From the IMG/VR virus record IMGVR_UViG_3300025530_000008: 64,000 nucleotides of DNA, one strand, 5' to 3'. Of this stretch, positions 3-63,789 are shown piece after piece. The notes under the pieces are model-generated. The model was not told the origin of the DNA and ran no database searches. It saw nothing but the letters and a program-made list of their open reading frames with translations. Positions within the stretch are counted from its first letter, which is position 1, and each line of letters begins with the position of its first letter. Source of the stretch: an uncultured virus (IMG/VR IMGVR_UViG_3300025530_000008) (Duplodnaviria > Heunggongvirae > Uroviricota > Caudoviricetes > Herelleviridae). A program made the translations under genes and the position numbers.

Positions 3-512
3 GCCGCCGTTAAGACAGCACCGCGCCCGCCGGCGGCGGTTAAGCCTCCGGCCCCGTCTGTGCAGCAGGCGCCCGCACCGGAGCCTCCGAAGATCGAGGA
101 TGTGCCGCCGCTGGCAGATCGAGAAGTTCCGAAGTCGGAGGAATACCGCCAGCCGCCGGCAGTCGACGAACCGCCGCGGGCTGATGGGCAGATTACCATG
201 CTCAAACTGCGCGCGCTTCCGCTGGAAGAACGCCACGCTTTGTGGCGGCGCCTGAACAAACAGGTCGGCGACGACACGTTGTTCATCACGGTCCTCATGC
301 CGGAGGAACTTCCGAAGCAGATGCAGCGCGAGCATCCGCCGCAGGGCAAGCGCCCGGTCGGGAAGAACGTGTACTGGTGCTGCTACTGCGCTGATTGGTC
401 GGTATTCGAGCATTTCTCCTATCTGGGAAGCCATAAGTGCATCGGCTGCGGCATTTCGACGAAGGATTACTACGTCCGCGGCGCGAACGGCTTGTGGAAG
501 AAAGAGGTATGA
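3..512 (+). CDS. Pro-rich protein with C-terminal Zn-finger (5' truncated by window edge)
   Basis: Frame is open from the window start; CxxC...CxxC (WCCYC, KCIGC) near the C-terminus. Confidence 0.7.
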   Translation, partial: AAVKTAPRPPAAVKPPAPSVQQAPAPEPPKIEDVPPLADREVPKSEEYRQPPAVDEPPRADGQITMLKLRALPLEERHALWRRLNKQVGDDTLFITVLMPEELPKQMQREHPPQGKRPVGKNVYWCCYCADWSVFEHFSYLGSHKCIGCGISTKDYYVRGANGLWKKEV

Positions 513-778
513 TTACCATGCGAGATCGGATCACGGAAGCATTCAACGACTTCATGCAGCGCCTGTTTGGCGAGGTTCCGGCCGATCCGAGACGGCTTTC
601 GGTCGACCGCACCAGATACACGGAGACGATGCTTGAGGTTCAGAAGGAGTATGGGCTTCAGCAGGGTGACCCGGATTTTCTGGAGTGGGTACTGACGCTT
701 GTCGGCAGATCACCGGTCATTACTGAAGGGAGAGAGGATTATGCAAGATCAGAGCAAGCAGAACATGGGACAGCCTAA
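509..778 (+). CDS. hypothetical protein
   Basis: ATG overlaps the upstream stop; GAGG SD. Confidence 0.55.
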   Translation: MITMRDRITEAFNDFMQRLFGEVPADPRRLSVDRTRYTETMLEVQKEYGLQQGDPDFLEWVLTLVGRSPVITEGREDYARSEQAEHGTA

Positions 779-1109
779 ACCGGGGATGGTGACGACCAAA
801 CAGGGCGCAGAGAACAGCAAACCGTGGGTGCGGCTGCACATGGCCCGGCAGACGGATTCTTGCCGAATGCCGGATGTCATCATAGGCAAGCTTCAGAAGG
901 AGACGCCGACAGAGTTCGTGCTGACGAATGTGCTGGAGATTACACCTGAAGGCGTGAGCGAGCGCAATTTTTACGACGTGATTAACCGGACCTACGTCTA
1001 CCGCTGTGAGGTCATCGGATTTAGGCCGGATGACGAAGAAATACTGGCGTCGCAGTACGGAGAGGTTATGGGACCGTCGCTCGGCGGCGGGTTCGGAGGT
1101 CTCGGATAA
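741..1109 (+). CDS. hypothetical protein
   Basis: GAGG SD before ATG 741; followed by a terminator. Confidence 0.65.
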   Translation: MQDQSKQNMGQPKPGMVTTKQGAENSKPWVRLHMARQTDSCRMPDVIIGKLQKETPTEFVLTNVLEITPEGVSERNFYDVINRTYVYRCEVIGFRPDDEEILASQYGEVMGPSLGGGFGGLG

Positions 1110-1120
1110 CTTCGAAACAT

Positions 1121-1153
1121 GGCCGAGGGTTCAGGCCCTCGGCTTTTATTTTT
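1121..1153 (+). terminator. intrinsic terminator
   Basis: GCCGAGGG-loop-CCCTCGGC followed by a T-tract. Confidence 0.8.
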
Positions 1154-1200
1154 GTCTAAAGTCGTTCACGTTTGTTGTTTTTTGTCCGATATGGTACAAT
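1150..1200 (+). promoter_or_regulatory. SigA-like promoter overlapped by AAAGTTGT-type repeats
   Basis: TTGTTG-N17-TACAAT with TG extension; CTAAAGTCGTTCA repeat unit. Confidence 0.55.
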
Positions 1201-1230
1201 ATCCATGCAAGGAGTAAGGGGGATGATGAC

Positions 1231-3243
1231 GTGTCGGCAGTGATGTTGAAGCTTATGGATAACCCACGGTTCGTCTATTTTGCCGGCAATACTTATCCAT
1301 ACAAGGACATCATCAAAGTCATCCCGGGCGCACGATGGAATAAAACCGCGAAGGTATGGTATATTCCGATCGAGTCCGTGCAGGACGCGTTGCGCATCTT
1401 CCCCTCGCTGCACGTGGACAGCAGCGTAAAGAATGCGCACGCCAGCACCAGCTCGAGGCTTCAGGCGGCGCTGGAGCTTAAGGGTAAGGACTTCCGAAGC
1501 GTCGCTCCGAAGCCGGTTCCCGGCCTTAATGCAACGCTTCGGAATTACCAACAGCTCAGCTTCGACTTCCTGCACCTGCTCGGCCCGGGCGAGGGCGCCG
1601 TGTTGGGCCTCGATATGGGCCTCGGGAAGTCGGTTACGATGCTGGCATATTTTCTGTCCCTGATGCATAAAGGTATCATCGATTACGCCCTCGTTGTATG
1701 TCCGTCTCCGCTTAAGTACGCGACATGGGCAAAGGAGATTCAGAAGTTTACAAACATCCCATTTACCGTCATCGACGGAGACGCCAGCGCGATCGTCGAA
1801 TGGGATAACGGTAAACGTGAGCGTTTGGAAGGTCGGGCGCTGCGGGAGGTCCAGTACCAGCAGTGGATGTTCGGAAGTCGTGTCCTCATCATGAACTATG
1901 AGCTGTTCCTGCATGATTCCGAGCACGACACCTATGTGTTCGAGCAGCCGCTTCTGGAAGTGAACCAGAAGATTTACCAAAACCTTATCGAGCACTTCAA
2001 TGTTTTGGAGGGTCGGAAGCCGGATCATAAGACGGGCATCAAGAAAGCGCAGAGTGAACTGCTTCCGAAGATCGTCAATAACCCTAAAGAATATACGATT
2101 CGGAAGCATAAGGGCGTGTACTCCCTGTTCCGAAGGGTTCGAGTTCCGTCGATTCTGCCGCCGATAACGGATCGCTGGGCGGTCTTTCTGGATGAGGCGC
2201 ACCGCATCAAAAATCCGAAGTCCGACACGACGAAGAAGCTGCTGGCGCACTTGAAGCCGGCAGGTCGGAAAGTGCTCGGAACCGGCACACCGCTGGAGAA
2301 CAACATCGTCGAGCTCTATTCGCTGGTCGACTTCAGCCGGCCGGGCATCCTCGGGACGTACTACGATTTCCTGTCCCGTTATGTCGAATGCGACGACTAC
2401 GGCACGCCGATTGCGCCGAAGCCGCAGATGCTTCAGGAACTGCGGGATAAGATATCACCGATTATGATCCGCTTCACCAAACAGGAAGTGTTGCCGGAGC
2501 TTCCGCCGCTCGAGCGCGTCGACTACTCCGTCAGCATGACGGATGTGCAGAAGAAGCTGTACGACCAGATCAAAGAAGGCATTCTGGTCAACGTCAAAGA
2601 TGGGTCATTTACCTACATGGACGTGATTGTTCAGCTTACTCGGCTCCAGCAAGTGCTTGACTCGCCGGCCCTTCTTCGGAAGGTTATGGAGGACGATACG
2701 CTGCCGGAAGACAGCGGAAAGCTGCGGGAGTTGGTCGGTATCATCTCGGACATCGATCCGAAGCGTAACCAATTCCTGATTTTCAGTCAGTACGCCGAAA
2801 TGACCGACATCCTTTACCGGTTCCTGACGACGCCGCAGAGTGGTAAGCAGATACTTAAACCTTCCGAAGTAGGTTACGTTCGCGGCGGGATGACGGCGCG
2901 GCAGATCGAGAATGTCCGCGAGGCGTTTCAGGCCGGACGTATGCGCTGCGTCATCATGACGACGGCCGGCAATTACGGGCTCGACCTGTATAAGGCCAGC
3001 TATGCGATCTGTTACGACCAGTTATTCAATCCGCAGAAGATGGAGCAGTTCCTGTCCCGCGGACACCGCAGCGGGAACACGACCGGCCTGACGGCGATTA
3101 CGCTGACGACCAAAGACAGCTACGAGGAAAAGAAGCAGGCGCTGCTGGAGCGCAAGCGCGAGCTGTTTAAGGCCATGGTCGACGAGGATGAGGCTGCATT
3201 TATGCGGCTGATTACGCCGGATGATCTCATGGAGCTCTTGTGA
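1231..3243 (+). CDS. SNF2-family (SF2) helicase with small N-terminal HARP/DUF5710-like domain
   Basis: LDMGLGKS Walker A, LDEAH, GTGTPLEN, LIFSQY, GNYGLDL, SRGHR; GTG start after a purine-rich SD. Confidence 0.9.
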   Translation: MSAVMLKLMDNPRFVYFAGNTYPYKDIIKVIPGARWNKTAKVWYIPIESVQDALRIFPSLHVDSSVKNAHASTSSRLQAALELKGKDFRSVAPKPVPGLNATLRNYQQLSFDFLHLLGPGEGAVLGLDMGLGKSVTMLAYFLSLMHKGIIDYALVVCPSPLKYATWAKEIQKFTNIPFTVIDGDASAIVEWDNGKRERLEGRALREVQYQQWMFGSRVLIMNYELFLHDSEHDTYVFEQPLLEVNQKIYQNLIEHFNVLEGRKPDHKTGIKKAQSELLPKIVNNPKEYTIRKHKGVYSLFRRVRVPSILPPITDRWAVFLDEAHRIKNPKSDTTKKLLAHLKPAGRKVLGTGTPLENNIVELYSLVDFSRPGILGTYYDFLSRYVECDDYGTPIAPKPQMLQELRDKISPIMIRFTKQEVLPELPPLERVDYSVSMTDVQKKLYDQIKEGILVNVKDGSFTYMDVIVQLTRLQQVLDSPALLRKVMEDDTLPEDSGKLRELVGIISDIDPKRNQFLIFSQYAEMTDILYRFLTTPQSGKQILKPSEVGYVRGGMTARQIENVREAFQAGRMRCVIMTTAGNYGLDLYKASYAICYDQLFNPQKMEQFLSRGHRSGNTTGLTAITLTTKDSYEEKKQALLERKRELFKAMVDEDEAAFMRLITPDDLMELL

Positions 3244-3269
3244 GTTGGAACTTTGCAGGGAGGGTTACC

Positions 3270-3635
3270 ATGCGACAACCACCGCCGAAGGCCGGCGGGT
3301 ACCGCCCGCCGCCGGGGTTTACGCCGCGGCAGAAGGCGGAAGACCCGCAGGACGAATCACAAGGAGAGGCCATACATGCAGAATACCGGGCGCCGGAGAC
3401 GGACGGACGGAAGGCCGTCGTCGAGCTCAGCATCCGGGTGTTTGTGGAAGTTCCGCACACCGGAGACTACTGGGATATGGTTGACCGGGCTAAAGATGAC
3501 GTGCGGCGGCGTGTGGTCGAGGCGCCTACGTTCTGGCCGGCCAGCATGGAAAGCGAGCGCGTGCACCCGGGAATGACTGTCCCAGAGCTGAAGGACCGGA
3601 CGATGTTCCGGCCGCAGGCGCGGTGGGATCGCTAA
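3270..3635 (+). CDS. hypothetical protein
   Basis: GGAGG SD before ATG 3270. Confidence 0.6.
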   Translation: MRQPPPKAGGYRPPPGFTPRQKAEDPQDESQGEAIHAEYRAPETDGRKAVVELSIRVFVEVPHTGDYWDMVDRAKDDVRRRVVEAPTFWPASMESERVHPGMTVPELKDRTMFRPQARWDR

Positions 3636-3642
3636 CTCGTCG

Positions 3643-3688
3643 TAATTTGTTCAAAGTTGTTGACAGATGTTCATTTTTGGTTTATCAT
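3643..3688 (+). promoter_or_regulatory. SigA promoter with overlapping 10-bp repeat operator
   Basis: TTGACA(3660)-N17-TATCAT(3683); TTTGTTCAAAGTTGTTGACA. Confidence 0.8.
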
Positions 3689-3732
3689 GGGTGTCAAGCA
3701 TGGCAGATAACCGAGAAAGGAGCGGAGCACCC

Positions 3733-3993
3733 GTGAGTACAACCGAGATCATGACACCAGCGCCGGGAACGCCGTCTGCTACCGTATCGGAAGAAGAACG
3801 CTTCACCATGCAACAGGCCATGGACTATCTCGTCAAAAAGGGGATACCCTGTAGGAGCCGCGGGACCTTTTACCGCATACTCAGGGATTTTGACGTAAAG
3901 TACGTTAATTCGAATCCGAACGGAAAGCACAAGACACGAAGGTTTTCTCAGGCAGAGCTGGACCGCGTCGTAGCGACGTACTTCAGCGAATAG
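3733..3993 (+). CDS. excisionase/MerR-like HTH DNA-binding protein
   Basis: FTMQQAMDYL...SRGTFYR...RRFSQAELDR pattern typical of HTH_17/Xis-like proteins; AAAGGAG SD before GTG. Confidence 0.7.
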   Translation: MSTTEIMTPAPGTPSATVSEEERFTMQQAMDYLVKKGIPCRSRGTFYRILRDFDVKYVNSNPNGKHKTRRFSQAELDRVVATYFSE

Positions 3994-4005
3994 GCTGAGC
4001 CGGAA

Positions 4006-4146
4006 GGTTCAGCCCGGCTTTAGGCACCCAAACATCCGCATGGAGTCCACCATCTCCTTCCTTACCGTGTGAGCCGTTATCTGAAGTGCATTGGCCGCTT
4101 AAGCCGAGGCCGATCAGCGTTTGGGTGCCTTAAGGCGGACTGAACC
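4006..4146. ncRNA. candidate structured RNA/leader with a 28-bp basal stem
   Basis: 4006-4033 is the reverse complement of 4119-4146 with 3 mismatches. Confidence 0.45.
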
Positions 4147-4233
4147 GCCGCTGTTGATCGGATGGTACATAGTGCAAGGCAGCCTGTCCGAAACACAGCA
4201 AAATCATCCTGTCTTCCGAAGGAGGAAGCCCAA

Positions 4234-5091
4234 ATGGCCCTGAGAGCAGTACGTACTGGAAGCACCGCACCGACCATGCAGGGGGTACCTGCAACTGCAG
4301 CACCGCAATTTGCTGCACAACAAGCAGCGGCATCTTCCGAAGTTGCCGCGCCTGTACAACAGGTCGCAACTCCATCTTCCGAAGTTGCAGCACCTGTACA
4401 ACAAGCCGCAGCTCCATCTTCCGAAGCTGCGACGCAAGCCGCAGCACCGGCCGCACAGGCCGCACCCGCTCAGCAAGCTGCACCCGCACCGCAAGCCGCA
4501 GCACCGGCCGCACAGGCCGCACCCGCACCGCAAGCCGCAGCACCGGTTGTTCCGGCCGCATCGGGAGTTCCGGTCGTATCTGGAGGCGCATCGGTTGCGG
4601 CATTGAACGAAGGCATTCTGGACAACGTTGAAGGGATCGGTCAGGTCGGCAACTATGTCACGGTTGACGGCTCGCAATTCCTTTACAAGTCCTCCAACCG
4701 CCGCGCGGACTATCTAGACATCTGCGTGCACTACGGCAAGCGGTTCTACCAATGGGTAGACGAGTCCAATCCGAGCGCGAAGGTCTACCATAACTCGGAT
4801 GAGAAGATCGACGATCGCTACAAGCTTAAGTTCGAAATTCGGTGGTACGAGCAAGGCGAGGACGGAGAGCCGGTCGAGTACACCATGTCGCTGTCGACGA
4901 CGAGCTCGATCCAGTTCATCAACTACGTGAAGAATCTGGCGAAAGCCGGCCTCGGCGTAGGTCAAGTGTGGACGCGCATGACGATCAGCCGCCACAATCG
5001 GCCGAATTCGTCGGAGCGCTACAGCCGGGTGGACTTCGAAGCGTTCTCGCTGGAGACGGGCGAACCGCTCGGAATCAAGTCTGCGAACTAG
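4234..5091 (+). CDS. probable ssDNA-binding/annealing protein with Ala-Pro-Gln-rich repetitive N-terminus
   Basis: GGAGG SD; low-complexity repeats followed by a compact aromatic beta-rich domain; lies just upstream of the primase-helicase (function inferred). Confidence 0.5.
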   Translation: MALRAVRTGSTAPTMQGVPATAAPQFAAQQAAASSEVAAPVQQVATPSSEVAAPVQQAAAPSSEAATQAAAPAAQAAPAQQAAPAPQAAAPAAQAAPAPQAAAPVVPAASGVPVVSGGASVAALNEGILDNVEGIGQVGNYVTVDGSQFLYKSSNRRADYLDICVHYGKRFYQWVDESNPSAKVYHNSDEKIDDRYKLKFEIRWYEQGEDGEPVEYTMSLSTTSSIQFINYVKNLAKAGLGVGQVWTRMTISRHNRPNSSERYSRVDFEAFSLETGEPLGIKSAN

Positions 5092-5121
5092 TTGCGTGAT
5101 TGTATTCGATCTTCCGAAGGT

Positions 5122-5158
5122 AATAGAACCCCTGCATCACCTTCGCAGGGGTTCTATT
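5122..5158 (+). terminator. intrinsic terminator
   Basis: AATAGAACCCCTGC...GCAGGGGTTCTATT hairpin. Confidence 0.8.
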
Positions 5159-5340
5159 ATCGGCAAAAATCGAAAGTGGCCTGCATAATACGGTTTGAGA
5201 CAGCCTGCCACAACGGCGCGTGAGCAGAACGTATCGCAAATGCGACCGCCTATGCTTAGGAAGATGAGCTTCCCTCGCTGCCGGCAGGCGTATCCCGGAC
5301 CGATTGGCAAGGACTACAGCATGGGGAGGAACTTAATAAC

Positions 5341-8300
5341 ATGGGTCGGGGAAAAGACCAGCAGTTCAATCTTGACGAATTCCGCTATGTTGACTGTTTC
5401 CACATCAATCCTCAGAGCGGGAAGCGCACGAAATGGGTGCGCCTGCCCATTGATAAGCTCGAAGAATTCCGCAACCAGTGGCAGAACTATAACGTGTTCT
5501 CCACCGTCCAACTCTATCGCCTGAAAACGAGACAAGAGGGCGGCGGCGAATTCATGTACGCGCCGCTGTTCTTTGACATAGACAGCTCGCGCCTCCTTGC
5601 GAAGGATACCGACAAGACGCCCCACAAACTGGGGTTGCTTGAGGAAGGCTCCGTGCACCCGGCAGAGATCATCCAATACTACCAAGGCACGGATTTAGAG
5701 GCGCACCTAAACAACTTTGCAATCGGCATCCCGCTGCCGGACGACGTGTGCAAACGCATCAATGCCATCGTCGACGAAACCGCTGAGCTTCGGGACTTTG
5801 TCTGGATCAAAAATCTCGAGGAAGCTCGGAAGGACGCCGTGAAGCTCATCCACTTCTTCAGGGAGCGATTCGGTCTCACGGAAGACGAAATCCGCGTGTA
5901 CTTCTCCGGGTCGAAGGGCTTTCACATTCTGGTCAATCCGGTTGTGCTCGGCATCCAGCCGGATAAAAACCTGCACCGCGTCTTCAAGTACATTGCGACG
6001 TATCTTGAAAGCCAGCTTGACCTTCGCTCGCTGGATACGTCTTCGATATACGGACACGGCCGCATGCTTCGAATGATTAACTCCATGCACCATAAGAGCG
6101 GCCGGTTCAAAGTGGAGCTTTATCATCATGAGCTGATGGGTGATCTGTGGCATGTCATCAATAATCTTGCCCGGGCACCGCGAATGGAGCTTTACGATCC
6201 GGCGAGCCTTGAGTATTCGCCGAATGAACTCGCCCGGGAATGGTACCTGCAGCAGTGGGAGGCCTATCAGGAATCAACGCAGCTTCACGCTGAGCGGCCG
6301 GTTCTGAAGGATGAAGTGCTGTCGCAAATGGAAGGCGTTCCGGTATGTGTGCAATTCATTCTGGACCGCGGCATCCTGAAGGCCGGCGACCGGAACAAGG
6401 CGACGATGGCACTGGCGTCTTACTACAAGGACATCGGCACGCCCATGGAGGAAACGATCAATATCCTGACGAAGTGGGCAGAGAAGATTCCGAAATCCAT
6501 GACCAGCTCGACACCTTCCGAAGTTCGGGCGTCGACGATCTCCTGCATCAAGACCGTGTACACGAATGACACCTACCACTTCGGTTGTGCCTTCATTCGC
6601 AGCCTGCACGGCGAGCGGAAGGGCCGGGATTACGAGGCGGTTCCATGCGCGGGCCGTGCGTGCCCTGCGCACGAGGACCACACCATCGACAACATCCCGG
6701 CGGAGCACATGCACCTTGCCAAAACGGCGGACGCCCAGTACACCGGCAAGAAGGTCTCCTTCGATGCGCTGGTTTCGGGCAAGATGGATACGCCGTATAT
6801 TGTTCCGAAGAAGGTCCGGTTTGTGTGCGCGCATGAGCCTTTCTGCGAGAAGGACTGCATCATGCACGACTACGCCGGTTTGATGGAGCGCGAGTTCCAC
6901 GAGAACGAACGCTTCCTTATCGAGGCCACAAACCAGAGCGACGAGCGTATCAAGAACATCCTGTTCCACTACTCACGCGCAAGCTGCAAGAAAGTGCAGT
7001 CGGACGTACTGGAGACGGAGAACGTAACGGAAATGCTCGTCGTGCCGATGGCTGATCGGGTGATGACCGTCCGCAACGTCGACGATAGCGGGCAGGAGCA
7101 GGTCACATCCGTTGACGAATCCGGCTACGAGTACGTCAGCCGGAAGATTTACGCTGTTGGCAAGCCGGACCAGATTCCGTCCGCCAACCAGCACTACACG
7201 ATCGAGGGCTTCGTTTACAGCCATCCGCGGAACGCTATGGCGACGATTCTGACGCAGAAGCACATTCCGAAGGCCGACAGCGTGTCGCAGTTCCGGCTGA
7301 CGGAAGAAGTCATCCGCGGCTTCGAAGTGTTCAAAGTGGCGCCCGGGGAAACGCTGGACGACCGCATATCGCTTATCATAAGCGATCTTGTGGAGAACGT
7401 TACGCTCGTCCGCGAGCGTTTCGAGCCGCATCTGGCCGTACTCATGACGTATCATTCCTGCTTGCATTACTACTTTCAGGATCAGCTCGAAAAACGCGGA
7501 TGGATGGAGACGATTTTCGTCGGGGACTCCGGGCAGGCCAAAACGCAGCTCGTCAGCAGCATCATGGAGTTCTGCGGTTTGGGTAACCTGACTTCCGGCG
7601 AGGGATCAAGTCGTACGGGTCTGGTCTACATGCTGGAGCAGATCAACGAGCGCTGGTTCATCAAGTGGGGAAGCTATCCGCTGTCGGACCGGAAGCTGAT
7701 TGCAATCGACGAGTTCTCCGAGCTCAACCCGGAGGACTTCGGGAAGATCACGGAAGCGCGCACGACAGGCGTGCTGAAGCTGACCCGGGCCGGCATCGAT
7801 ACGGAGACGAATGCCCGCGTCCGCCTGATTCTGCTGACCAACCCGGCCAACGCCCGGACGCTGGCAAGCTTCACGCACGGCGTCGAAAGCTTGAAGCCGC
7901 TGTTTGCGTCGCCGGCCGACATACGGCGCCTTGATCTCGCGGTATTCCTCCAATCCGGGGATGTTCCGAAGTCGGTACTGAACGCGGAGCACTCGGCAAC
8001 GCGCCGGCAGCTTATCACGTCCGAAGTGCTGCGAAACAGTGTCCTGTGGGCGTGGAGCCGGCGGCCGGAGCAGATCGAGATCACGCCGGCAGCTATGAAG
8101 CGTATCCTGCAACTGGCCGATGTGCTGGGCGACAAGTACGGCTACGCACAGGACATTCCGCTTATGGAGCCTTCCGATCTTCGGAAGAAGCTTGCTCGGA
8201 TGTCGATCGCGCTGGCGGCGCTGGTCCATTCGACGGACGAAGAACACGAGAAGGTCATCGTGCTGCCGGAGCACGTCGAGTACGTTTCCGACTTTGTGCA

Positions 8301-8628
8301 GGTAGTGTACGACAACAAGAATGCGCGGCTGGACGTTTACGCGGCGAAGTCGAAGGAGGAAACGGAGTTGACGCCGGAAGAGCGTGCTATCGTCGACAAG
8401 GCCCTGAACGATCTCGACTTTGCAGACAGCGCGCCGGTGTCGGCGGAAATACTCGACCTGTTCCGAAAGAACGAAATCCTGAAGCCTGTCGAGATCATCG
8501 ACATGCTGGGGTACGAGCGTGGGCAGGTTAACTCGAGGCTGTCCATCCTGACGAAGCATAGCATGATTACGCGGACGCGCGACGGTCTTCGGAAGCTTCC
8601 GAAGTTCATTGAATTCCTGAACGCATGA
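5341..8628 (+). CDS. AEP primase fused to MCM-family AAA+ helicase
   Basis: AEP motifs FFDID, YFSGSKGFH, RMLR; PriCT-like GDRN helix; Cys clusters; MCM motifs GDSGQAKTQ, SSRTGL, IAIDEF, NARVRLILLTNP, RRLDL. Confidence 0.85.
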   Translation: MGRGKDQQFNLDEFRYVDCFHINPQSGKRTKWVRLPIDKLEEFRNQWQNYNVFSTVQLYRLKTRQEGGGEFMYAPLFFDIDSSRLLAKDTDKTPHKLGLLEEGSVHPAEIIQYYQGTDLEAHLNNFAIGIPLPDDVCKRINAIVDETAELRDFVWIKNLEEARKDAVKLIHFFRERFGLTEDEIRVYFSGSKGFHILVNPVVLGIQPDKNLHRVFKYIATYLESQLDLRSLDTSSIYGHGRMLRMINSMHHKSGRFKVELYHHELMGDLWHVINNLARAPRMELYDPASLEYSPNELAREWYLQQWEAYQESTQLHAERPVLKDEVLSQMEGVPVCVQFILDRGILKAGDRNKATMALASYYKDIGTPMEETINILTKWAEKIPKSMTSSTPSEVRASTISCIKTVYTNDTYHFGCAFIRSLHGERKGRDYEAVPCAGRACPAHEDHTIDNIPAEHMHLAKTADAQYTGKKVSFDALVSGKMDTPYIVPKKVRFVCAHEPFCEKDCIMHDYAGLMEREFHENERFLIEATNQSDERIKNILFHYSRASCKKVQSDVLETENVTEMLVVPMADRVMTVRNVDDSGQEQVTSVDESGYEYVSRKIYAVGKPDQIPSANQHYTIEGFVYSHPRNAMATILTQKHIPKADSVSQFRLTEEVIRGFEVFKVAPGETLDDRISLIISDLVENVTLVRERFEPHLAVLMTYHSCLHYYFQDQLEKRGWMETIFVGDSGQAKTQLVSSIMEFCGLGNLTSGEGSSRTGLVYMLEQINERWFIKWGSYPLSDRKLIAIDEFSELNPEDFGKITEARTTGVLKLTRAGIDTETNARVRLILLTNPANARTLASFTHGVESLKPLFASPADIRRLDLAVFLQSGDVPKSVLNAEHSATRRQLITSEVLRNSVLWAWSRRPEQIEITPAAMKRILQLADVLGDKYGYAQDIPLMEPSDLRKKLARMSIALAALVHSTDEEHEKVIVLPEHVEYVSDFVQVVYDNKNARLDVYAAKSKEETELTPEERAIVDKALNDLDFADSAPVSAEILDLFRKNEILKPVEIIDMLGYERGQVNSRLSILTKHSMITRTRDGLRKLPKFIEFLNA

Positions 8629-8645
8629 AAGGAGGGTGAGCATCT

Positions 8646-9026: not shown

Positions 9027-9035
9027 CGCAGCAGC

Positions 9036-12230: not shown

Positions 12231-12329
12231 CGGCTCGGCTGGCGCGCAATAACTTACGATCTTCGGAAGATCGTAATAGCACAGGGCACCGTTTAGCGGT
12301 ATGCTGAAGGCAGGAAGGAGGACTACGAT

Positions 12330-54726: not shown

Positions 54727-54780
54727 TCAAGCTGCGGACAGCCTGCGAATTCGCATGCTACAATAGCAGTAACATGCGCG

Positions 54781-54814
54781 GGGCACCTTCCGAACCGTGA
54801 AGGTGCCCATTTTC
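54781..54814 (+). terminator. hairpin/terminator between the two giant genes
   Basis: GGGCACCTTC...GAAGGTGCCC followed by ATTTT. Confidence 0.6.
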
Positions 54815-54837
54815 AAGGCAGAATGGAGGGTTAAGGC

Positions 54838-57800: not shown

Positions 57801-60800
57801 TCTCGGCCGGGCACTCGGCTACACGGGCAAAGAGGCAAGCGACCTGAAGGCGACGCTGGTGGCACACGCCAACACGGCGCCGGATAAGCCGTTCATGCAG
57901 AAAATTTCGGATGAGGAATTCGCCCAGCACCGGGCGAAGACGAAAGCCGGGCTTCAGGAGTCCATGCTTCATAAAGATTTCCGGCTGGTCGACCAGACCC
58001 GGGACAAGGACGGCAACATCACGAGCCAGACCTTTGCTCAGAAGATGCCGGACGGCACCATGAACCACATCACGGTCGACGGCAGCGGCCGGATTACGGA
58101 CCCGCTGATGCGACGCCTGCTCAACCAGCGCGCACCGGTGACGAACGAGAAGGAACTGAACGAACTTCTGAAGAACGCGGTCGGCAACCGGGTATGGGTG
58201 ACGGCACACTTCGGAAGCGACATCCACATCGGAGACGCGCTGGGCCATCACGTGCAACTGGAGTATGACGGAAAAGGCGCGCCGCGGGTAGTCGGCGGAA
58301 AGTACGACGGCTATCGGTACGTTGACCGCCGCGACATTCCGAAAGGCGCAATCGACCCGGCAACGGGCGAGCCGGTAAAAGCGCTGTTCCGCAACGGCCG
58401 ATTGGTTGATCGTCGATTTACGACGAAAAATGACGTGCCGATGCGGGAAGGTAATCCGGTCATGTACAGGGACGGCGACAGCTACAAGAAGGGCCGCATC
58501 TACTCCATCGAGGGCGACAACTACAAGATCACGGATGGCCAAGGGCACGTCATCGGCATTTTCAAGAAGGAAGACCTGAAGCCGGCGAAGCAGGAAGGTC
58601 GCATGCTTTCGGAAGCCGGAACGGCCGTGCTGAAGGTAGCTCAGACCGGTACGCACCGCTTGAACGTACAGGAAGCACTGGCTGACATGTCGAAGGGCCG
58701 CCGGAAGCTGCTTGAAGAAGCCCTTCAGAGGGCACACATCCAGCGCGCAGCATTCGACTCCGACGGTAACCTTCGGAACGAGCTGGAGCTGTCGGATGCA
58801 GCGCACAAGCGGCTGAGCAAAATCCTCGGCCGGTCGAAAGCCGGACGGGAAATCCTGTCGAAGTTCAACAGCGCCTACACGAAAGAACTGGAGCTGCATG
58901 TGCCGGAGCGCCTGCGGAGCGTGGTCGAAGCGGAAGGCGTCCGGGTGCTGGCAGACGGCACGGCGCGCATTTCGGCATCGAAGTTCGAACAACTTCGGGA
59001 TGTGCTGAACAACGCCGGCAGCGGCATTTCGCTGACCTATCAAGCGCAGGAGCATTTGGCGGATCACTTCGCCCGCAAAGATCGTGTTCCGAAGGAAGTC
59101 AGCGAGCTGCGGAAGAAGTATCAGCCGTCGACGATTGAATCCGGCGACAAGGAATTCGACAAGCACTACAAGGCGCAGTTCAACGAGAAGTCGTACCTGA
59201 TGGACCCGTCAAAAGGTCTGTACGGCACGCAGCTTGACGGCGTCTCGCACCTCATCGAGCGCGGCCGGGGCATTGCCGGCCACGGCATGGGTACGGGTAA
59301 GACGATCCTCGGCGTGGTTGCCGGCCTGCATACGAAAGCGCAGGCGCTTGCTCGGGGCGAGAAACCGAAGAAGACGCTTATCGTGGCGCCGAAGGGCATC
59401 ATGTCGGACTGGGGCAAGGAAATCGCCACGCACACCAACAGCAAGGCGCTCTATATCGGTGGCGCAAGCAGCTTCGCCGGAGCGAAGCGCGGCGAGGACG
59501 GTAAGCGCTACTGGGGCCAAGCCGGCACGGAGCAGGAAGCTGTCGACATTCGGAAGTTCAAGAAAGGCTCGCACGCCGGTCAAGATCACGACTTCCATAT
59601 CGTCAGCTACGACACGTTCATGCGGAACCGCGACTTCTTCGCCAACAGCGGCGAGTACGACAACATCGTCATCGACGAAGTCCACGCCTTCAAGAACCAG
59701 AAAGGCAAGCGCGGCGCCGCGCTGGCGGAGACGACGGACAAGTTCAAGAACGTGTGGGGCCTGTCAGGTACGCCGATGGAGAATGATCCGCGTGAGATGC
59801 ACGCATTGGTCGACACCATCACCGGCGGCCGGCACGAGCTCGGAAGCCTGCGGGAGTTCCAGAACAAGTACATGATGAAGGACCGCAACGGCAAGCTGGT
59901 CGGCATCAAGCCGAGCATGGCGGAAAAGCTGGGCGACATTCTGGCATCCATAGTGCAGTTCCGAAGCGGCGAGGACGTAACCTACAACGACGGCAGCAAG
60001 ATTCGCTTCCCGCATCTGGTTGGTCAGCAATCGAATGATCCGGGACAGAATCCGAGTCCTCCGGTCGACTTCATCGGTGACATGGTCGACCGCAGCCGCG
60101 ACCACCAGACGACGGATTACTACGGCACGAAGCACTCGATTACCGATTTCGAAACCAGTACGAAGCAGGTTACCAACGCGAAAAGCGGCGAAACCTACGA
60201 GGTCACCACGACGACGCCGAAGAATGTATCGCCGGAGCTGGCGGCCATGTATGATACGTACAAGTCACTTGAAGCGAAGTACCTGCCAGCATCGAAGCTT
60301 AACGAGCTGGCGTCTGCGGCCGCAACAGGCATCGATCAAGGCCAGAAAGGTCAGTCGAACTACCTGACGGCCATGCAGAAGCTTCAGAAGTTCCTGAATG
60401 CACCGCTGGCGCACAAGATGTATGTCGAAGGCGGAAACGCAATCGATTCCGACGCAACGGATGCGCAGGCGGAAAAGCCGGCGAAGGGTGGCGCCTCCGG
60501 TCTGGTCGAAGGCAAGCACTACATCGTCGACGAGAACGGCTTCAAGCGCTACTTTGAAAGCGACGGCAAGGGCGGTTACCTGCGTAACCCGGACGGCAGC
60601 CCGAAGCTGCTGCCGCCGCTGCACAAGCAGAATCCGAAAGCGCAGTACCTGCAAGACCGGATTCACAAGTATCTGGATTCGCTCATGTTGGAGAACCGCC
60701 GTCGGGTAGCCCGCGGCGATAAGCCGCTGGTGCCGAAGGTTGTCGTGAAGTCGAACTACACGACGTTCGGCACAGACATCGTCGACAACGTGCTGAAGGA

Positions 60801-61449
60801 AGTCCGTAACACGCACCCGATCTTCGCCGAACTGGCGCGGCAGGGTTACACGAACTTGACCCACGGACAGTTCACCGGTGAAGCGAAGGACCGGGAAGAA
60901 ACAAAGAGCGGCTTCCGCGGCAACAAGCACGACTACCTGAATAATCAGGGCAACCTGTGGGCCACGACGGTTTCGCCGGCCGGTAAAGAAGGCGTTGACT
61001 TCGGAAACGCGCATCTGATGATCCACTACGATCAAGACTGGAACCCGCAGAAGATGGCGCAGTTTACGGCGCGCGTCCGGCGGTCGGACTCGGCGAAGAC
61101 GCACGAGCAGGTCGGCCGGGCGAATGCGGTTCGGGTCGAATCGCTGCACGTTCCGAATACGGTCGAGGACTTCATCTTCAACGCGCAAGACGCGAAGATG
61201 CGTGCGATTCAGCACGTTGTCCAAAGCACCCGGGATGCAGAGGCCTTCCCGAAGCTCGGTGAAACCGAAGGCACGGTCGGTTACGGTGCCCGCGGATTCA
61301 CCAGTCGCAAGCAGCCGCGTCAGCCGGTTGCACCGGCACGACCGGATAAAGCGCCGAGCATTCCAAAGCCCGGAAGCGGCGGAGCTGAAGTTCGGAAGCC
61401 CATGTTGGCGAGTGCTGACAAAGCACTGAAGTTAGTGGTACTCTTGTAG
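54838..61449 (+). CDS. giant polyvalent protein with a sigma70-like domain and C-terminal SNF2 ATPase
   Basis: Sigma regions 2-4 (DLLQ, LGRTPTHDEVASYL, LTDDEIRV...MTSPEVA); SNF2 GMGTGKT, IDEVH, SGTPMEN, GKEGVD, DWNP. Confidence 0.85.
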   Translation: MKPALVIDLQKASAARTWREELHPRDEQGRFTRIRGGSRIVTRTGKTGRVHKVTDTHYHVTADDGSKFTVSKKNAVHYDDYEAAMKAAKKNKRKASAAAKKAKATKASNKANATGKTGAAKPLADPTKKAAKKNPAAKKTSEAAENKTLVMPVTPKKRKAEKPLDNEQNRAIAEVAEIEKTPEKANLDKQWQSAEVQNILKKPVNKRSAEEIRRVAGKLTKENDKLARHVVHKMAAARGMSILGQVYRLKRHVGGNRSKEGKEEAKLHGATVVQETGLYGDLLQSARASMFATLSSVLSGSQNPRKGTAIGAHVISRMRQQLHRDMYDILNTIPAPHEIRTAIGDAWKAEETLTGKLGRTPTHDEVASYLQKNSKAFREAPIMQPPVWNEDKGEWEAKNQRVTDPSERLRVLKNYADQQKATHLDQGVTDERTGERRNVAEAMADRTAASPEARAIERERQQELRTALPKAMKEMGLTDDEIRVMVIKFSNPSSTTSKPTMTSPEVAAYLKEHYGMDVTSKWVDNRITLGMQKIKRAREQNHPALEQLRMLKSLVVRAILKMSWEIDLYKALTSWGLTPDVLEMRPTRIVYGRSREDILKSLEPHEYVGSFVTFEDGEVAAQVTELTLPEGHELRKAFMDTLQKAMFPHKGASNAEINKKAQEYVRANKQRYASLADQQLGRIRGKGGSLTWSEELLLKNPGSAWITWGGKRILINTGNGEIIYDSRNEAHREDYNQGAQEDKIEFHHEKEAGVSEENAHEHDHGIQAFRNEFMNRMRDEWIKKEGNKIVGGIKGEFLQHNSHKALDVYRDLSDEERKALDDMGADREAKAAFLGDHFLRKEGVIEALQQYRNGELSEEDIRQRLAGLGSLAGRNSKMMASFLGDVKKHDPATEEGLKKLAESFGAKEMTRAGEEASKNLLPEGKYMIGNPITGKTMIVHVGGAFTGGRGSRKKDESGKEEKGKYTSEVLEAFDPDGRIHETINTWGDLGRALGYTGKEASDLKATLVAHANTAPDKPFMQKISDEEFAQHRAKTKAGLQESMLHKDFRLVDQTRDKDGNITSQTFAQKMPDGTMNHITVDGSGRITDPLMRRLLNQRAPVTNEKELNELLKNAVGNRVWVTAHFGSDIHIGDALGHHVQLEYDGKGAPRVVGGKYDGYRYVDRRDIPKGAIDPATGEPVKALFRNGRLVDRRFTTKNDVPMREGNPVMYRDGDSYKKGRIYSIEGDNYKITDGQGHVIGIFKKEDLKPAKQEGRMLSEAGTAVLKVAQTGTHRLNVQEALADMSKGRRKLLEEALQRAHIQRAAFDSDGNLRNELELSDAAHKRLSKILGRSKAGREILSKFNSAYTKELELHVPERLRSVVEAEGVRVLADGTARISASKFEQLRDVLNNAGSGISLTYQAQEHLADHFARKDRVPKEVSELRKKYQPSTIESGDKEFDKHYKAQFNEKSYLMDPSKGLYGTQLDGVSHLIERGRGIAGHGMGTGKTILGVVAGLHTKAQALARGEKPKKTLIVAPKGIMSDWGKEIATHTNSKALYIGGASSFAGAKRGEDGKRYWGQAGTEQEAVDIRKFKKGSHAGQDHDFHIVSYDTFMRNRDFFANSGEYDNIVIDEVHAFKNQKGKRGAALAETTDKFKNVWGLSGTPMENDPREMHALVDTITGGRHELGSLREFQNKYMMKDRNGKLVGIKPSMAEKLGDILASIVQFRSGEDVTYNDGSKIRFPHLVGQQSNDPGQNPSPPVDFIGDMVDRSRDHQTTDYYGTKHSITDFETSTKQVTNAKSGETYEVTTTTPKNVSPELAAMYDTYKSLEAKYLPASKLNELASAAATGIDQGQKGQSNYLTAMQKLQKFLNAPLAHKMYVEGGNAIDSDATDAQAEKPAKGGASGLVEGKHYIVDENGFKRYFESDGKGGYLRNPDGSPKLLPPLHKQNPKAQYLQDRIHKYLDSLMLENRRRVARGDKPLVPKVVVKSNYTTFGTDIVDNVLKEVRNTHPIFAELARQGYTNLTHGQFTGEAKDREETKSGFRGNKHDYLNNQGNLWATTVSPAGKEGVDFGNAHLMIHYDQDWNPQKMAQFTARVRRSDSAKTHEQVGRANAVRVESLHVPNTVEDFIFNAQDAKMRAIQHVVQSTRDAEAFPKLGETEGTVGYGARGFTSRKQPRQPVAPARPDKAPSIPKPGSGGAEVRKPMLASADKALKLVVLL

Positions 61450-61454
61450 TAGCA

Positions 61455-61478
61455 GAGCGGGGCGGAAATGCCCCGCTC
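61455..61478 (+). terminator. GC hairpin after the giant gene
   Basis: GAGCGGGGC-loop-GCCCCGCTC; weak T-tract. Confidence 0.5.
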
Positions 61479-61500
61479 CCTTAAGGGAGGGGGTAGGTAA

Positions 61501-61755
61501 GTGGCGGACCGGATGTTCGATACGGACTCATTTCTGGATGAGATTCAGACACCGGAAGAAGCAAAAGCCTGCGTGGATTTCCTGACCGCGAACGAACGAA
61601 TCTTCCGAAGACAGCTTATGGACGAGGGCCTGTCGCATGAGCAGGAAGAACAGGAAGTAAAGGCGGTCTGGACGAATCTCATCAAGGCCTGCCGCCGGGT
61701 CGGCTACAAAGACCCGTGGGTGGATGAGAAGGCAAAACGATACGGTGTAGGGTAA
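61501..61755 (+). CDS. hypothetical protein
   Basis: GGAGG SD. Confidence 0.65.
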   Translation: MADRMFDTDSFLDEIQTPEEAKACVDFLTANERIFRRQLMDEGLSHEQEEQEVKAVWTNLIKACRRVGYKDPWVDEKAKRYGVG

Positions 61756-61768
61756 GGAGGTCTGGGCG

Positions 61769-61969
61769 GTGGTAAAATGCGAAGGCTGCGGGCGGATCAT
61801 TCTTGACCAGACTTCGGAGGGATGGAAGCTGCGCACACGAATGCTGCTGTTCGAGCGCGGCGGTGCGTATGCGATATGTCCGTCTTGCAAGAAGGAAGTC
61901 AAGGTGCCTGTCGTATTGAACGATCCACCGCCCGCACTTCCGAAGACGAAATTGTTGGTGAAAATTTGA
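61769..61969 (+). CDS. small Zn-ribbon protein
   Basis: CEGC...CPSC; AAGGAGG SD. Confidence 0.65.
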   Translation: MVKCEGCGRIILDQTSEGWKLRTRMLLFERGGAYAICPSCKKEVKVPVVLNDPPPALPKTKLLVKI

Positions 61970-61979
61970 AACAATATTA

Positions 61980-62008
61980 TTGACTAACTTCCGAAGTGGA
62001 AGTATATT
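61980..62008 (+). promoter_or_regulatory. SigA-like promoter for the protease/capsid operon
   Basis: TTGACT-N17-TATATT with CTTCCGAAG in the spacer. Confidence 0.65.
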
Positions 62009-62029
62009 CAGAATCAAAAGGGCAACGAA

Positions 62030-62149
62030 GTCCAACGAGGACAGCCCAAGACGTGCATTTGTGGATCGTCCTTTACCAGCTCCTCGATCCACAAATGACA
62101 TAGCCGTCCCCATCCCGCGGCTTACGTCTTGTGCTGTCCTCGTTGGATT
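62030..62149. ncRNA. candidate structured leader RNA
   Basis: 24-bp basal stem (1 mismatch) plus a perfect 13-bp inner hairpin. Confidence 0.5.
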
Positions 62150-62175
62150 TTTGGCGGGGAAAGGTAGGTGATAAC

Positions 62176-63789
62176 ATGCGTTCCACGCTGGAAAACAACG
62201 ACACTTACCATCTGTGGGTGCCCATTGAAGACGCCGACCTGATGAAGTCGGTCGAAGTCGATGAAAATGGCGACTGGATTGTTCGCGGCGTCATGACATC
62301 CGACGACAAGGACGAGGAAAACGACGTTATCAGCCCTGAAGGTATGGATTGCTCGTACTTCCTCGAGAAAGGCTGGATCAAATACGAGCACGGCAACAAT
62401 CCGAACCAGTTCATCGGCGAACCGATCGCCGTCAAGGTAGGGCGCTTCAAGCATCCGACACTCGACAAGTCGGTCAACGGCGTCTATGTCGAAGGCAGGC
62501 TGTACCGTAACCGCGAGCTTGCAAAGCAGGCCGTTCAAACGATCGAAGACCTTCAGAAGTCGAACACCAAACGGCGGATGGGTTGGTCGATCGAGGGCAG
62601 CGTGCGCGAGCGGTGCCGAAAGACCGGCAAAATCGTGAAATCCGTTCTTCGGAACGTGGTACTTACGATGAATCCGGTAAATACAATGACGTGGGTCGAA
62701 CTGGCGAAGTCCTTCGCTAAAAACCACGAACTGACGATCGACATGCCGATGGACAAGTCTCTTGACACCGGCGAAATGGCGGAAGTGACGCCGCAGTCGG
62801 TCGAGGGCGGGAGCAAGAAAGCTGTTCCCGAAGTAAGCGACGAGGCATGGAGCCGTCTTCTGCGCGCTTTCGTTGAAAGCGACGAAGACGATATCCATAA
62901 ATCCGTGGACTCGCCGGGAAGTTTGGCCATGAAGGCCTTCGCCTTTGCCAAACTGAAAGGCTTCAACTACGACGACGCCTACACTTTCGGTGCGTTCGTC
63001 AAGCAAAACCACGGGAAAATTCGGCTCTTAATCAAGAGCCATGGGGGTGAGACGATGAGCAAGCAAACGGGTGTGCTCGACACGGCGCTGGAGGAACTGG
63101 AGAAGGCGCTGGACATCGAAGCTGTGCAGGACGAGGACGAGCTGCTGAAATCGCAATCTTCCGAAGATGACGAGGAAGATTACGAGGACGACAGCGAGGA
63201 CTACGAAGACGCCGACGAGGACAGTGACGAGGACAGCGACGAGGACAGCGACGAGGACAGCGACGAGGACAGCGACGAGGAAGGCGACGGCGAAGGTTTT
63301 GCGAAGTCCTTCAGCAAGGACAGCACGGTGCAGCAAGCGCTGGAAGTCTCGGACTTCCTGTCCAGACTCGTCGACGAAGTCGGCTACTCGATCGACACCG
63401 TGAACAAGTCCCTGAGCAGCGTAAGCCGTCAGCAAAGCGCACTTCTGAAGGCATTCAAGGCCGTTGGCGAACAGCTCCGCGACCTTGCGGAAGAAAACGC
63501 TGAGCTGAAGAAATCCTTCGAAGAACTGCTGAATCGTCCGATCGGGCGCCGCGGCGTAACGTCGACGCGGGAAGTCCAAACCATCACGAAGGGCTTCAAT
63601 CTGGGTCCGCAGCCGATGGAAGGCAAGCTGACGAGAGCGAGAGTGCTCGCCGAGCTGAATAAATCGTTCGAAGCCGGCAACTACAGCCTCGGCGAAGAAA
63701 TCATGCGCTACGAGGCGGGTGTTCCGCTCGAGAACTTGAACCTTCCGCACGAGCTGCGCGTGAAGTTCGGCCTCGCATCGGCTGAATAA
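62176..63789 (+). CDS. prohead protease fused to an acidic scaffold-like domain
   Basis: GWIKYEH, IGEP, VEGRLY, MGWSIEG, NVVLT.NPVN; DEDS repeats; coiled-coil C-terminus. Confidence 0.88.
   Translation: MRSTLENNDTYHLWVPIEDADLMKSVEVDENGDWIVRGVMTSDDKDEENDVISPEGMDCSYFLEKGWIKYEHGNNPNQFIGEPIAVKVGRFKHPTLDKSVNGVYVEGRLYRNRELAKQAVQTIEDLQKSNTKRRMGWSIEGSVRERCRKTGKIVKSVLRNVVLTMNPVNTMTWVELAKSFAKNHELTIDMPMDKSLDTGEMAEVTPQSVEGGSKKAVPEVSDEAWSRLLRAFVESDEDDIHKSVDSPGSLAMKAFAFAKLKGFNYDDAYTFGAFVKQNHGKIRLLIKSHGGETMSKQTGVLDTALEELEKALDIEAVQDEDELLKSQSSEDDEEDYEDDSEDYEDADEDSDEDSDEDSDEDSDEDSDEEGDGEGFAKSFSKDSTVQQALEVSDFLSRLVDEVGYSIDTVNKSLSSVSRQQSALLKAFKAVGEQLRDLAEENAELKKSFEELLNRPIGRRGVTSTREVQTITKGFNLGPQPMEGKLTRARVLAELNKSFEAGNYSLGEEIMRYEAGVPLENLNLPHELRVKFGLASAE

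Follow-up and report, generated by a model that had tools for sequence, protein, structure and literature searches.

A nine-base palindrome kept by selection in one clade of uncultured tailed phages

Copies of the palindrome CTTC-N-GAAG (CTTCNGAAG) are spread across a 64,000-nucleotide stretch of IMG/VR record IMGVR_UViG_3300025530_000008, which comprises about two thirds of the genome of an uncultured tailed phage of about 94 kb. We call this whole stretch the window. The array of copies is real and strong, it is under selection, and it is specific to one lineage of phages. We think that the array is a putative set of recognition sites in duplex DNA, which selection keeps at close to the maximal density and which would be read by a phage-encoded protein with two-fold symmetry. 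The probability that we give to this explanation is about one half.

The array and the phages that carry it

The window contains 72 exact copies of CTTCSGAAG, as compared with a mean of 0.78 and a maximum of 3 in dinucleotide shuffles, and 19 copies of CTTCWGAAG (shuffle mean, 0.39). If one mismatch to CTTCNGAAG is allowed, there are 188 sites (shuffle mean, 25.9), and the core TTCNGAA occurs 165 times. These numbers bear out an initial annotation of the window, which had counted about 70 exact copies along with many CTTCWGAAG copies and one-mismatch variants; every coordinate that it listed is correct. In this phage and its relatives, the 9-base word occurs about once per 500 to 700 bases. 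CTTCNGAAG is the most frequent of all words of its length, and no other palindrome rivals it. In a logo built on the 133 TTCSGAA cores in the window, C precedes the core in 85 of 133 sites (position -1) and G follows it in 112 (position +1), and nothing is conserved beyond the 9 bases of the motif. The motif is a 9-base palindrome (4+1+4) that is symmetric between the strands and has a free centre base. The sites and their two tightest groupings are as follows (open reading frame is abbreviated as ORF):

309..63900, no strand: array of 91 exact CTTCNGAAG sites (72 with C or G at the centre, 19 with A or T), from exact-word counts
Starts of CTTCSGAAG: 309, 1491, 2062, 2674, 2861, 4213, 4334, 4376, 4418, 5111, 6515, 8179, 8587, 8596, 9663, 10095, 11892, 12261, 12571, 13798, 13909, 14422, 15107, 16215, 16549, 18482, 19129, 20313, 21061, 21656, 22063, 23929, 28036, 29419, 29722, 34527, 34945, 35650, 35700, 37490, 39977, 40181, 40388, 41141, 41521, 41804, 42825, 43646, 43710, 44441, 44485, 47004, 47079, 48095, 49209, 49785, 50195, 50894, 52199, 53119, 53648, 54365, 54713, 55256, 56239, 56737, 57734, 58209, 61602, 61937, 61988, 63158
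Starts of CTTCWGAAG: 891, 11010, 20004, 20771, 25487, 25880, 30014, 37789, 43047, 45229, 50407, 55945, 56761, 56926, 58165, 60382, 62551, 63442, 63892
4334..4426, + strand: three motif copies at 42-base spacing, inside ORF 4162-5091, which is conserved in all relatives (G001_37)
8587..8604, + strand: abutting copies, CTTCGGAAG then CTTCCGAAG, which encode L-R-K-L-P-K at the C terminus of the primase-helicase

We did not find close relatives among GenBank phages: megablast gave none, and there were only distant matches to the portal protein, at 37% identity or less. For the full genome, we used G001 (94,044 bases, with terminal repeats), which is about 99% identical to the window. According to PHROGs and Pfam, the window encodes a replication module (an SNF2 helicase, a primase-helicase of 1,095 amino acids, a family A polymerase, a RuvC-like resolvase, a dUTPase, a Cas4-like nuclease and a ligase) and structural genes (a GpA-type large terminase, a portal, two very large polyvalent proteins and a prohead protease). 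One of the polyvalent proteins is an LPD1 protein with a ParB-like nuclease domain (50221-54726), and the other is an SNF2 protein of 2,203 amino acids. The remaining 30 kb, from G001, adds the capsid, sheath, baseplate, fibres, lysis genes, an HU-like protein and a SprT-like protein. We found relatives through terminase and primase matches in IMG/VR:

G001: GC content 57%, 134 CTTCNGAAG
G002: GC content 55%, 161 CTTCNGAAG
G003: GC content 55%, 191 CTTCNGAAG
G004: GC content 45%, 133 CTTCNGAAG, plus 68 CTTCGAAG
G005: GC content 43%, 79 CTTCNGAAG
G006: GC content 40%, CTTCNGAAG outside the list of the commonest palindromes, CTTCSGAAG once

In each of G001 to G005, CTTCNGAAG leads the palindromes by at least 6-fold; in G005, A or T at the centre is commoner than C or G. 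G007, G008 and G009, which are fragments of the G006 type, have one or two copies each, and the motif is absent from more distant relatives (terminase 36-61% identical). Thus, the motif belongs to one clade of myovirus-like phages of about 100 kb, not to one genome. Because the five motif phages span 43-57% GC, the motif persists across a 14-point range of GC content, which argues for an inherited phage factor rather than the bias of one host.

The motif is not a by-product of coding. We called 62 genes in the window with a codon model trained on long ORFs and shuffled the synonymous codons within each gene 300 times. This null preserves both amino acids and codons, and the enrichment survives it: 72 copies of CTTCSGAAG were observed and 17.9±2.2 were expected (largest value, 25). 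Of these copies, 59 lie in called genes and 13 lie outside; because the shuffle leaves the latter untouched, just 5 or so genic copies are expected. The genic copies occur in all three frames (27, 23 and 7 in frames 0, 1 and 2 of genes on the + strand, plus 2 in genes on the - strand) and encode L-P/R-K, S-E or F-R/G-S/R. In G001, TTCNGAA occurs 246 times, and 72.3 were expected under the synonymous-codon null.

The choice of codons for particular peptides gives a similar picture: synonymous codons spell the word wherever the encoded protein permits. L[PRQL]K is spelled as CTTCNGAAG in 57/79, 63/83, 95/113, 43/87 and 32/82 cases in G001 to G005, respectively (72, 76, 84, 49 and 39%), as compared with 2-8% (1.6-7.5 cases) expected from codon usage. 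Similarly, [APST]SE[VADEG] is spelled through the motif in 37/43, 44/51, 39/41, 48/56 and 26/34 cases (86, 86, 95, 86 and 76%). In motif-less G006, the corresponding counts are 0/44 and 1/17. The C terminus of the primase-helicase illustrates this: GL(R/K)KLPKF is identical in the six phages, except for one R/K change in G006, and it is encoded as CTT CGG AAG CTT CCG AAG in G001 and G002, so that both copies of the motif are present, as compared with CTT AAG AAG CTA CCA AAG in G006. G003 and G004 have one copy of this pair, and neither copy is exact in G005. After allowing for genome length, the motif phages also have about 1.5-2 times as many peptides that are compatible with the motif; therefore, the pressure has reached the protein sequences.

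We then considered whether individual sites are conserved, by projecting the sites in G001 onto aligned orthologues, with other 3N3 words as the background. TTCNGAA was kept at 39/107 sites in G002 (background, 9.1%), 41/134 in G003 (8.6%), 18/94 in G004 (4.9%) and 10/105 in G005 (3.4%). Across these motif phages, motif sites are retained 3-4 times as often as other words, while amino-acid identity over the motif codons is near the background (1.0-1.25 times). In motif-less G006, just 2/96 sites were kept (background, 2.4%). Between the 99%-identical window and G001, 403 of 60,990 aligned positions differ, including none of the 942 specified motif positions (6.2 expected). Two thirds of the sites are not common to the relatives, so sites turn over while the density is held. 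The sites are under both purifying selection and selection that maintains their density.

The distribution of the sites is broad and even. TTCNGAA occurs 2.72 times per kb in core genes, 2.31 in accessory genes and 2.78 between genes, so it is as dense in intergenic DNA as in core genes. The mean spacing is 330-710 bases, and the coefficient of variation of the spacing is 0.72-0.85 in three genomes and 0.92-1.00 in two, where random placement gives 0.99±0.06 to 0.10; that is, the spacing is more even than random in 3 of the 5 genomes. We found no helical phasing (10-11 bases) or clustering of the sites, and there is a slight deficit at short range. The initial annotation had described sparse zones, but the gaps at 24-28 kb and 37.5-40 kb are within the range for random placement, and the longest gap in G001 is 4,721 bases (random mean, 3,852). 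The sites also lack strand polarity: on the sense strand, the ratio of C to G at the centre is 58:55, 63:51 and 58:50 in G002, G003 and G004, and the C bias in G001 follows the codon frame. This implies that the word is read as a duplex by a two-fold symmetric reader, or else equally well from either strand. Overall, the shuffles, the conservation, the polarity and the spelling of peptides agree with the initial annotation that this is a DNA-level signal, comparable to HIP1, that occurs in all reading frames and in intergenic DNA; it is neither a peptide artefact nor a codon artefact.

The motif is also overrepresented in the spacers of promoter-like sites. Across the five genomes, we identified 287 such sites as matches to the sigma-70 consensus. 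At 13 of the 287, the distance from the start of the -35 hexamer to the start of the motif is 7-11 bases, and about 2 were expected; at the other 81 offsets examined, there were 24 occurrences, and about 32 were expected. Thus, for these consensus-matched promoters, the proposal that the motif lies in or beside promoters holds. The examples in the window are:

61980..62008, + strand: sigma-70-like promoter TTGACT-N17-TATATT, with CTTCCGAAG (61988-61996) in its spacer, upstream of the prohead protease/scaffold gene
21654..21750, + strand: promoter/5'-leader cassette, copy 1, with a G-centred motif just upstream of a TAGAAT -10-like hexamer
22061..22157, + strand: promoter/5'-leader cassette, copy 2, with a C-centred motif

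The flip of the centre base between the two cassette copies, which had been pointed out previously, is real. A third copy of the head of the cassette (TTTACATG-CTTCCGAAG-CGCGCTAGAAT) lies upstream of gene 31 in G001, from 42929 onward (about 10929-11010 in L066), and the promoter of the HU gene has motif copies on both flanks. The cassette is about 97 bases long. Its elements are the motif, CGCGC, TAGAAT, a conserved leader in which GGGAGG...CCTCC can pair, and a Shine-Dalgarno sequence, and it precedes three different small or medium genes.

Loss of the motif and candidate readers

In a maximum-likelihood tree of the primase-helicase, motif-less G006 is the sister of motif-bearing G005 (support, 99/99) and lies next to the remaining motif lineages; the outgroup is distant and motif-less. 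The pairwise identities of the capsid, portal, sheath and polymerase agree with this tree. Given that G006 is nested beside G005, the simplest history is that the motif was lost on the G006 branch. We did not find a replacement palindrome in the motif-less lineage. In G006, the non-palindromic word CAGAGGC is modestly in excess, by 3-4-fold, on each strand (57 vs. 17.8 expected and 15 vs. 3.8), and CTCNGAG occurs 34 times (9.2 expected).

G006 and G007 overlap, and together they cover the whole of a G006-type genome. Of the 118 genes of G005, 47 have tblastn hits in all four of the other motif genomes. Just 2 of these 47 shared genes have no hit in the G006-type genome: one encodes a winged-helix protein and the other encodes a Spartan-like protease. 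The winged-helix gene is in the window:

48547..48873, + strand: candidate reader, a winged-helix protein of 108 amino acids, in the virion module between the portal-side genes and the polyvalent proteins

The gene caller missed this gene because it overlaps a longer ORF call. Orthologues, which range in length from 84 to 153 amino acids, are present in all five motif-rich genomes, and tblastn searches of the motif-less sister returned nothing but noise, up to an E value of 10. More broadly, all 11 motif-rich loci that span the neighbourhood have the gene, and none of 3 motif-less loci does. The AlphaFold2 model has a predicted local distance difference test score (pLDDT) above 90 for residues 1-70, and its elements are ordered H-H-H-beta-hairpin-H, as in a winged helix with a C-terminal helix. 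The nearest folds are Bacillus subtilis RTP, a small PadR protein (LmrR) and MecI, which are all DNA-binding dimers; the matches are weak (Foldseek E = 0.005-0.09). By sequence, the protein's only relative was itself, and Pfam gave only subthreshold rows for LexA_DNA_bind, AbiEi and MerR. A homodimer prediction (score, 0.01; mark, 0.42) counts neither way. Immediately upstream, and overlapping this gene, lies a 96-residue protein (48291-48581) with a weak hint of a zinc ribbon (PHROG 9844).

The Spartan-like protease is 354-590 amino acids long. Its gene lies between the HU and SNF2 helicase genes, at 44578-46092 in G001, a short way upstream of the window. The protein combines a SprT-like HExxH domain with a conserved Cys-rich ribbon and a clade-specific domain, and in 4 of the 5 motif genomes it ends in a TyrR/Fis-type helix-turn-helix. 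Human SPRTN is the closest match to the AlphaFold2 model (mean pLDDT, 84.7), but the match is weak (Foldseek E = 0.004, probability 0.99, query-normalised TM-score 0.17). The family is confined to this clade (62 proteins), and a profile of it found nothing in G006 to G009 or in G010, a distant motif-less genome that is complete.

The initial annotation had suggested that the motif could be the site of a dimeric DNA-binding protein of the phage. This part agrees with our preferred explanation, but the comparison of genomes does not favour the candidates that were named. The motif-less sister, too, encodes the polyvalent protein with the ParB-like domain; motif-rich G003 and G004 lack both the ParM-like partition gene and its small neighbour; and neither PHROGs nor Pfam named a Rok-like protein among the scanned ORFs.

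Explanations for the array

If the array consists of recognition sites for a phage protein, then the reader may be the small PadR/RTP-like winged-helix protein (48547-48873), and the Spartan-like protein, as a DNA-dependent metalloprotease, may be a partner or an effector that acts on motif-marked DNA. We are less confident in this specific pair, which was proposed from sequence comparisons, than in the general explanation. The even, saturating and unclustered coverage, with about one site per 400-700 bases, suggests a task for which the whole molecule must be occupied or addressed, and not ordinary gene-by-gene regulation. One option is that occupancy across the genome would serve as both operator and roadblock, by shutting off promoters and by blocking host enzymes that translocate along the DNA; the placement in promoter spacers would make this role repressive. 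Another option is that the bound protein would dock the neighbouring injected polyvalent proteins or other protective proteins. Docking is suggested because the candidate gene adjoins the large polyvalent proteins and because the DNA-dependent protease covaries with the motif. The large polyvalent proteins resemble injected anti-restriction proteins such as DarB of phage P1. A more elaborate proposal, which we consider to be unlikely, is that the palindrome is an address code: the winged-helix protein would bind it at intervals of a few hundred bases and recruit or activate the Spartan-like protease, and perhaps the polyvalent proteins, so that host proteins that load onto phage DNA or move along it would be blocked or cut. 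The targets might include restriction translocases, RecBCD-type nucleases, SMC-type loop extruders or silencers. If true, this would be a sequence-addressed, protease-based form of genome protection, which has not been described so far.

Several observations count against a phage-encoded reader or against these two genes. The link between the motif and the genes rests on one loss event, because a single lineage accounts for every motif-less locus that includes the relevant region, and it could be a coincidence or a consequence of a host switch; we did not find further informative loss lineages in the metagenome collection. Accessory genes have nearly the core density of the motif, which would also fit a host gene pool that is rich in the motif. 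Foldseek gives the winged-helix protein only weak matches, none better than E = 0.005. The half-sites that winged-helix dimers read usually lie about 10 bases apart, not 5, and ribbon-helix-helix, bZIP-like or enzyme-like readers would suit a 4+1+4 site better. In G005, the motif persists at a reduced level even though the Spartan-like gene lost its C-terminal helix-turn-helix, and a minimal SprT-ribbon homologue of 189 amino acids is found in an unrelated temperate phage that is free of the motif. The last two observations weaken the case for the Spartan-like protein as the sole reader, and since G005 keeps the motif without that helix-turn-helix, the winged-helix protein is the better candidate for the reader itself.

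A signal in protein or RNA, such as a favoured peptide, a codon-pair effect or an mRNA element, might seem plausible since most of the copies are genic and the genes are nearly all on one strand. We reject this explanation: the motif occurs in three frames that give different peptides, it is at least as dense between genes, the motif-less sister spells the same peptide otherwise, the centre base follows no sense-strand rule across genomes, and a 4+1+4 palindrome cannot fold as a hairpin. Alternatively, the word might be created without any function at each site, as a HIP1-like by-product of a methyltransferase (from the host, or an unrecognised one from the phage) and biased mismatch repair. 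This could account for the near-saturation of synonymous opportunities, as expected from a strong directional process, and G004, which is the only genome with an N6/N4 methyltransferase, also has the 68 copies of CTTCGAAG. However, six-frame searches of G001 to G005 found N6_N4_Mtase (PF01555) in G004 only and DNA_methylase (PF00145) and MethyltransfD12 (PF02086) in none of the five. Scans of the ORFs with PHROGs and Pfam gave no methyltransferase, except for PHROGs cross-hits to SNF2 helicases, and there was no hidden methyltransferase in the N-terminal 1,400 residues of the 2,203-residue protein or in the polyvalent protein, which were scanned in pieces. Thus, the defining companion of HIP-type palindromes is missing from 4 of the 5 motif genomes, unless a host enzyme serves. 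Also, words one mismatch away from the motif show no depletion, with shuffle ratios of 0.64-1.57. TCCSGAA alone is depleted, and it includes the avoided TCCGGA. In particular, conversion of T to C of the very-short-patch type does not fit, as TTTSGAA is not consistently depleted (ratios, 0.65-1.09). The conservation of sites in place and the lack of single-nucleotide polymorphisms within them point to selection on existing sites, and the avoidance of other palindromes shows that modification does not give general protection. On balance, a by-product of methylation and repair seems very improbable. The avoidance itself is strong: under the synonymous-codon null for the whole G001 genome, TCCGGA occurs 2 times (46 expected), CAGCTG 0 (45.8), GACGTC 3 (42.2), GGATCC 0 (25.8) and AGATCT 0 (13.8). 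This is classical avoidance of restriction sites, and therefore the phage's DNA looks unmodified and exposed to restriction. Given this avoidance and the absence of the three methyltransferase families from 4 of the 5 motif genomes, the proposal that the motif is a modification target that marks self DNA gains no support. A recombination cue, which the initial annotation also proposed, is neither favoured nor disfavoured by these results.

The reader could instead be a host protein. The phages would have gathered a word that the host reads, as with Chi, or a nucleoid or regulatory site, and the motif-less lineage would have switched to hosts that lack it. Enrichment of phages in a word read by the host has a precedent (PMC12315714). 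PHROGs named no recombinase in this phage, the density in accessory genes is nearly that of the core, and even spacing fits a protective word. But the motif phages range from 43% to 57% GC and probably have different hosts. Known Chi sites are asymmetric, while this palindrome shows no bias in strand or orientation. The word is also placed in promoter spacers, and the lineage that lost it lost two phage genes as well. We view a host reader as credible but unlikely. Another possibility is that the sites are where the replisome starts or loads, for instance by recognition by the primase-helicase on either strand at the spacing of Okazaki fragments. The mean spacing of 330-710 bases and its evenness in three of the five genomes would suit this role, a palindrome would serve both strands, and the phage has its own large primase-helicase. 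On the other hand, the primase-helicase of the motif-less sister is 65% (to G001) to 68% (to G005) identical, primases read single strands and have no need of a duplex palindrome, and the placement in promoter spacers is left unexplained. A role in replication is thus quite improbable.

Other features, known systems and implications

Some features of these genomes may be worth recording. The methyltransferase gene of G004, at 40152-40787 on the - strand, is of the N6/N4 type and is the sole one among the relatives. G004 alone has a second iterated palindrome, without the centre base (CTTCGAAG, 68 copies), and its TTCGAA is about 2-fold over the shuffle; in G006, TTCGAA occurs 0 times (8.7 expected). 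TTCCGGAA-type words are depleted while TTCSGAA, which is one base shorter, is hyper-abundant. G002 and G004 have 27-28 copies of another word, AGGAGCTGG (read as CCAGCTCC from the opposite strand), as compared with about 1-2 predicted by a third-order Markov model; this word is probably a shared ribosome-binding or start context. CCAGCTC(C) is likewise overrepresented in G002 to G004.

The window also encodes an actin-like partition ATPase of the ParM/Alp type (Pfam ALP_N and MreB-like_C; 20478-21563, - strand), with a small gene downstream (20169-20474, - strand). This pair is on the strand opposite nearly all of the other genes and has orthologues in G002 and G005 (but, as noted above, not in G003 or G004). 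The partition gene suggests a plasmid-prophage lifestyle. Near the N terminus of the ParB-domain polyvalent protein is a 36-base tandem repeat (50430-50860; 12-residue units, about 12 copies). This protein has 1,501 amino acids in the window and 1,189 in G001, which is 99% identical, so the copy number or length varies by strain. At 31747-36638 lies a tandem set of four paralogues, left-handed beta-helix/hexapeptide-repeat proteins of unknown function (PHROGs 7964/5070), which do not have best reciprocal hits in the relatives. In L023, L025, L026, L030, L031 and L119, the terminase match spans 2.7-3.0 kb for about 580-610 residues, as compared with about 1.8 kb elsewhere, which suggests that the terminase gene of some relatives has an insertion of about 1 kb that may be like an intein or an intron. 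As to the host, we sought tRNA genes as a clue and found none, and a scan of contigs from metagenome genomes for a link to the host identified only distant terminases in two bins. The stretch in the window is present in assembled contigs of 20 of 24 listed runs.

Among known systems, the motif is most readily compared to HIP1 (GCGATCGC) of cyanobacteria. Both are short, hyper-abundant palindromes that occur in all frames and in intergenic DNA and are conserved in place above the background. HIP variants are said to track methyltransferases (Elhai, 2015). The phage motif is not cyanobacterial HIP1: the terminase, portal, capsid, sheath and baseplate genes identify these genomes as phages, and the word is CTTCNGAAG, not GCGATCGC. 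It also differs in that it belongs to a phage clade, has an odd length with a free centre and, at about 1.3-1.8 per kb, is much denser; a cognate methyltransferase was not found in 4 of the 5 genomes; and the loss lineage points to two candidate genes. HIP1 is maintained by selection and has no known reader (PMC5861425), and the phage motif matches HIP1 in every statistical respect used in that 2018 study.

The phages that are rich in Chi resemble the motif phages in that their genomes are enriched in a short DNA word. Chi is asymmetric and defined by the host, whereas the phage motif is palindromic, lacks polarity, occurs in promoter spacers as well and tracks phage genes. As for recombination genes in the window, PHROGs named no recombinase or annealing protein, and the RuvC-like resolvase, the Cas4-like nuclease and the ligase are present. 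Lambdoid phages (LLS and others) are rich in Chi, which is read by a protein machine to the benefit of the phage (PMC12315714).

The motif can also be compared with dispersed operators, in that many sites are spread over a mobile genome, with some of them in promoters; other sites act at a distance or as roadblocks in those systems. The stoperators of cluster A mycobacteriophages, the C1 sites of P1 and the KorB sites of RK2 (OB, TTTAGCSGCTAAA) number 10-36 copies, are mostly intergenic and are 13-17 bases long. Stoperators are asymmetric and oriented, and the KorB site has an odd length and a C/G centre. In contrast, the phage motif has 130-190 full copies (ten times more), about 80% of them are intragenic, and they are written by codon choice. 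Finally, RTP and small PadR dimers share with the candidate reader a fold with a winged helix and a C-terminal helix, by a weak match. There is no sequence similarity, the known sites of RTP and PadR are longer, and the candidate's dimer state is putative. RTP is a DNA-bound barrier to a translocating helicase.

In a search of open-access full texts, we found no report of a phage-wide, HIP-like palindrome or of this motif. HIP1-type words have been without a reader or a function for decades, and here the same kind of signal is found in a genome of about 100 genes. Because the loss lineage narrows the candidates to two genes that are small enough to express, the question of the reader is directly testable. 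If a reader were confirmed, it would mean that carrying an array of protein-binding sites can lead a phage to recast most of its codon choices and part of its protein sequence, and the motif would also be a marker for members of this uncultured clade.

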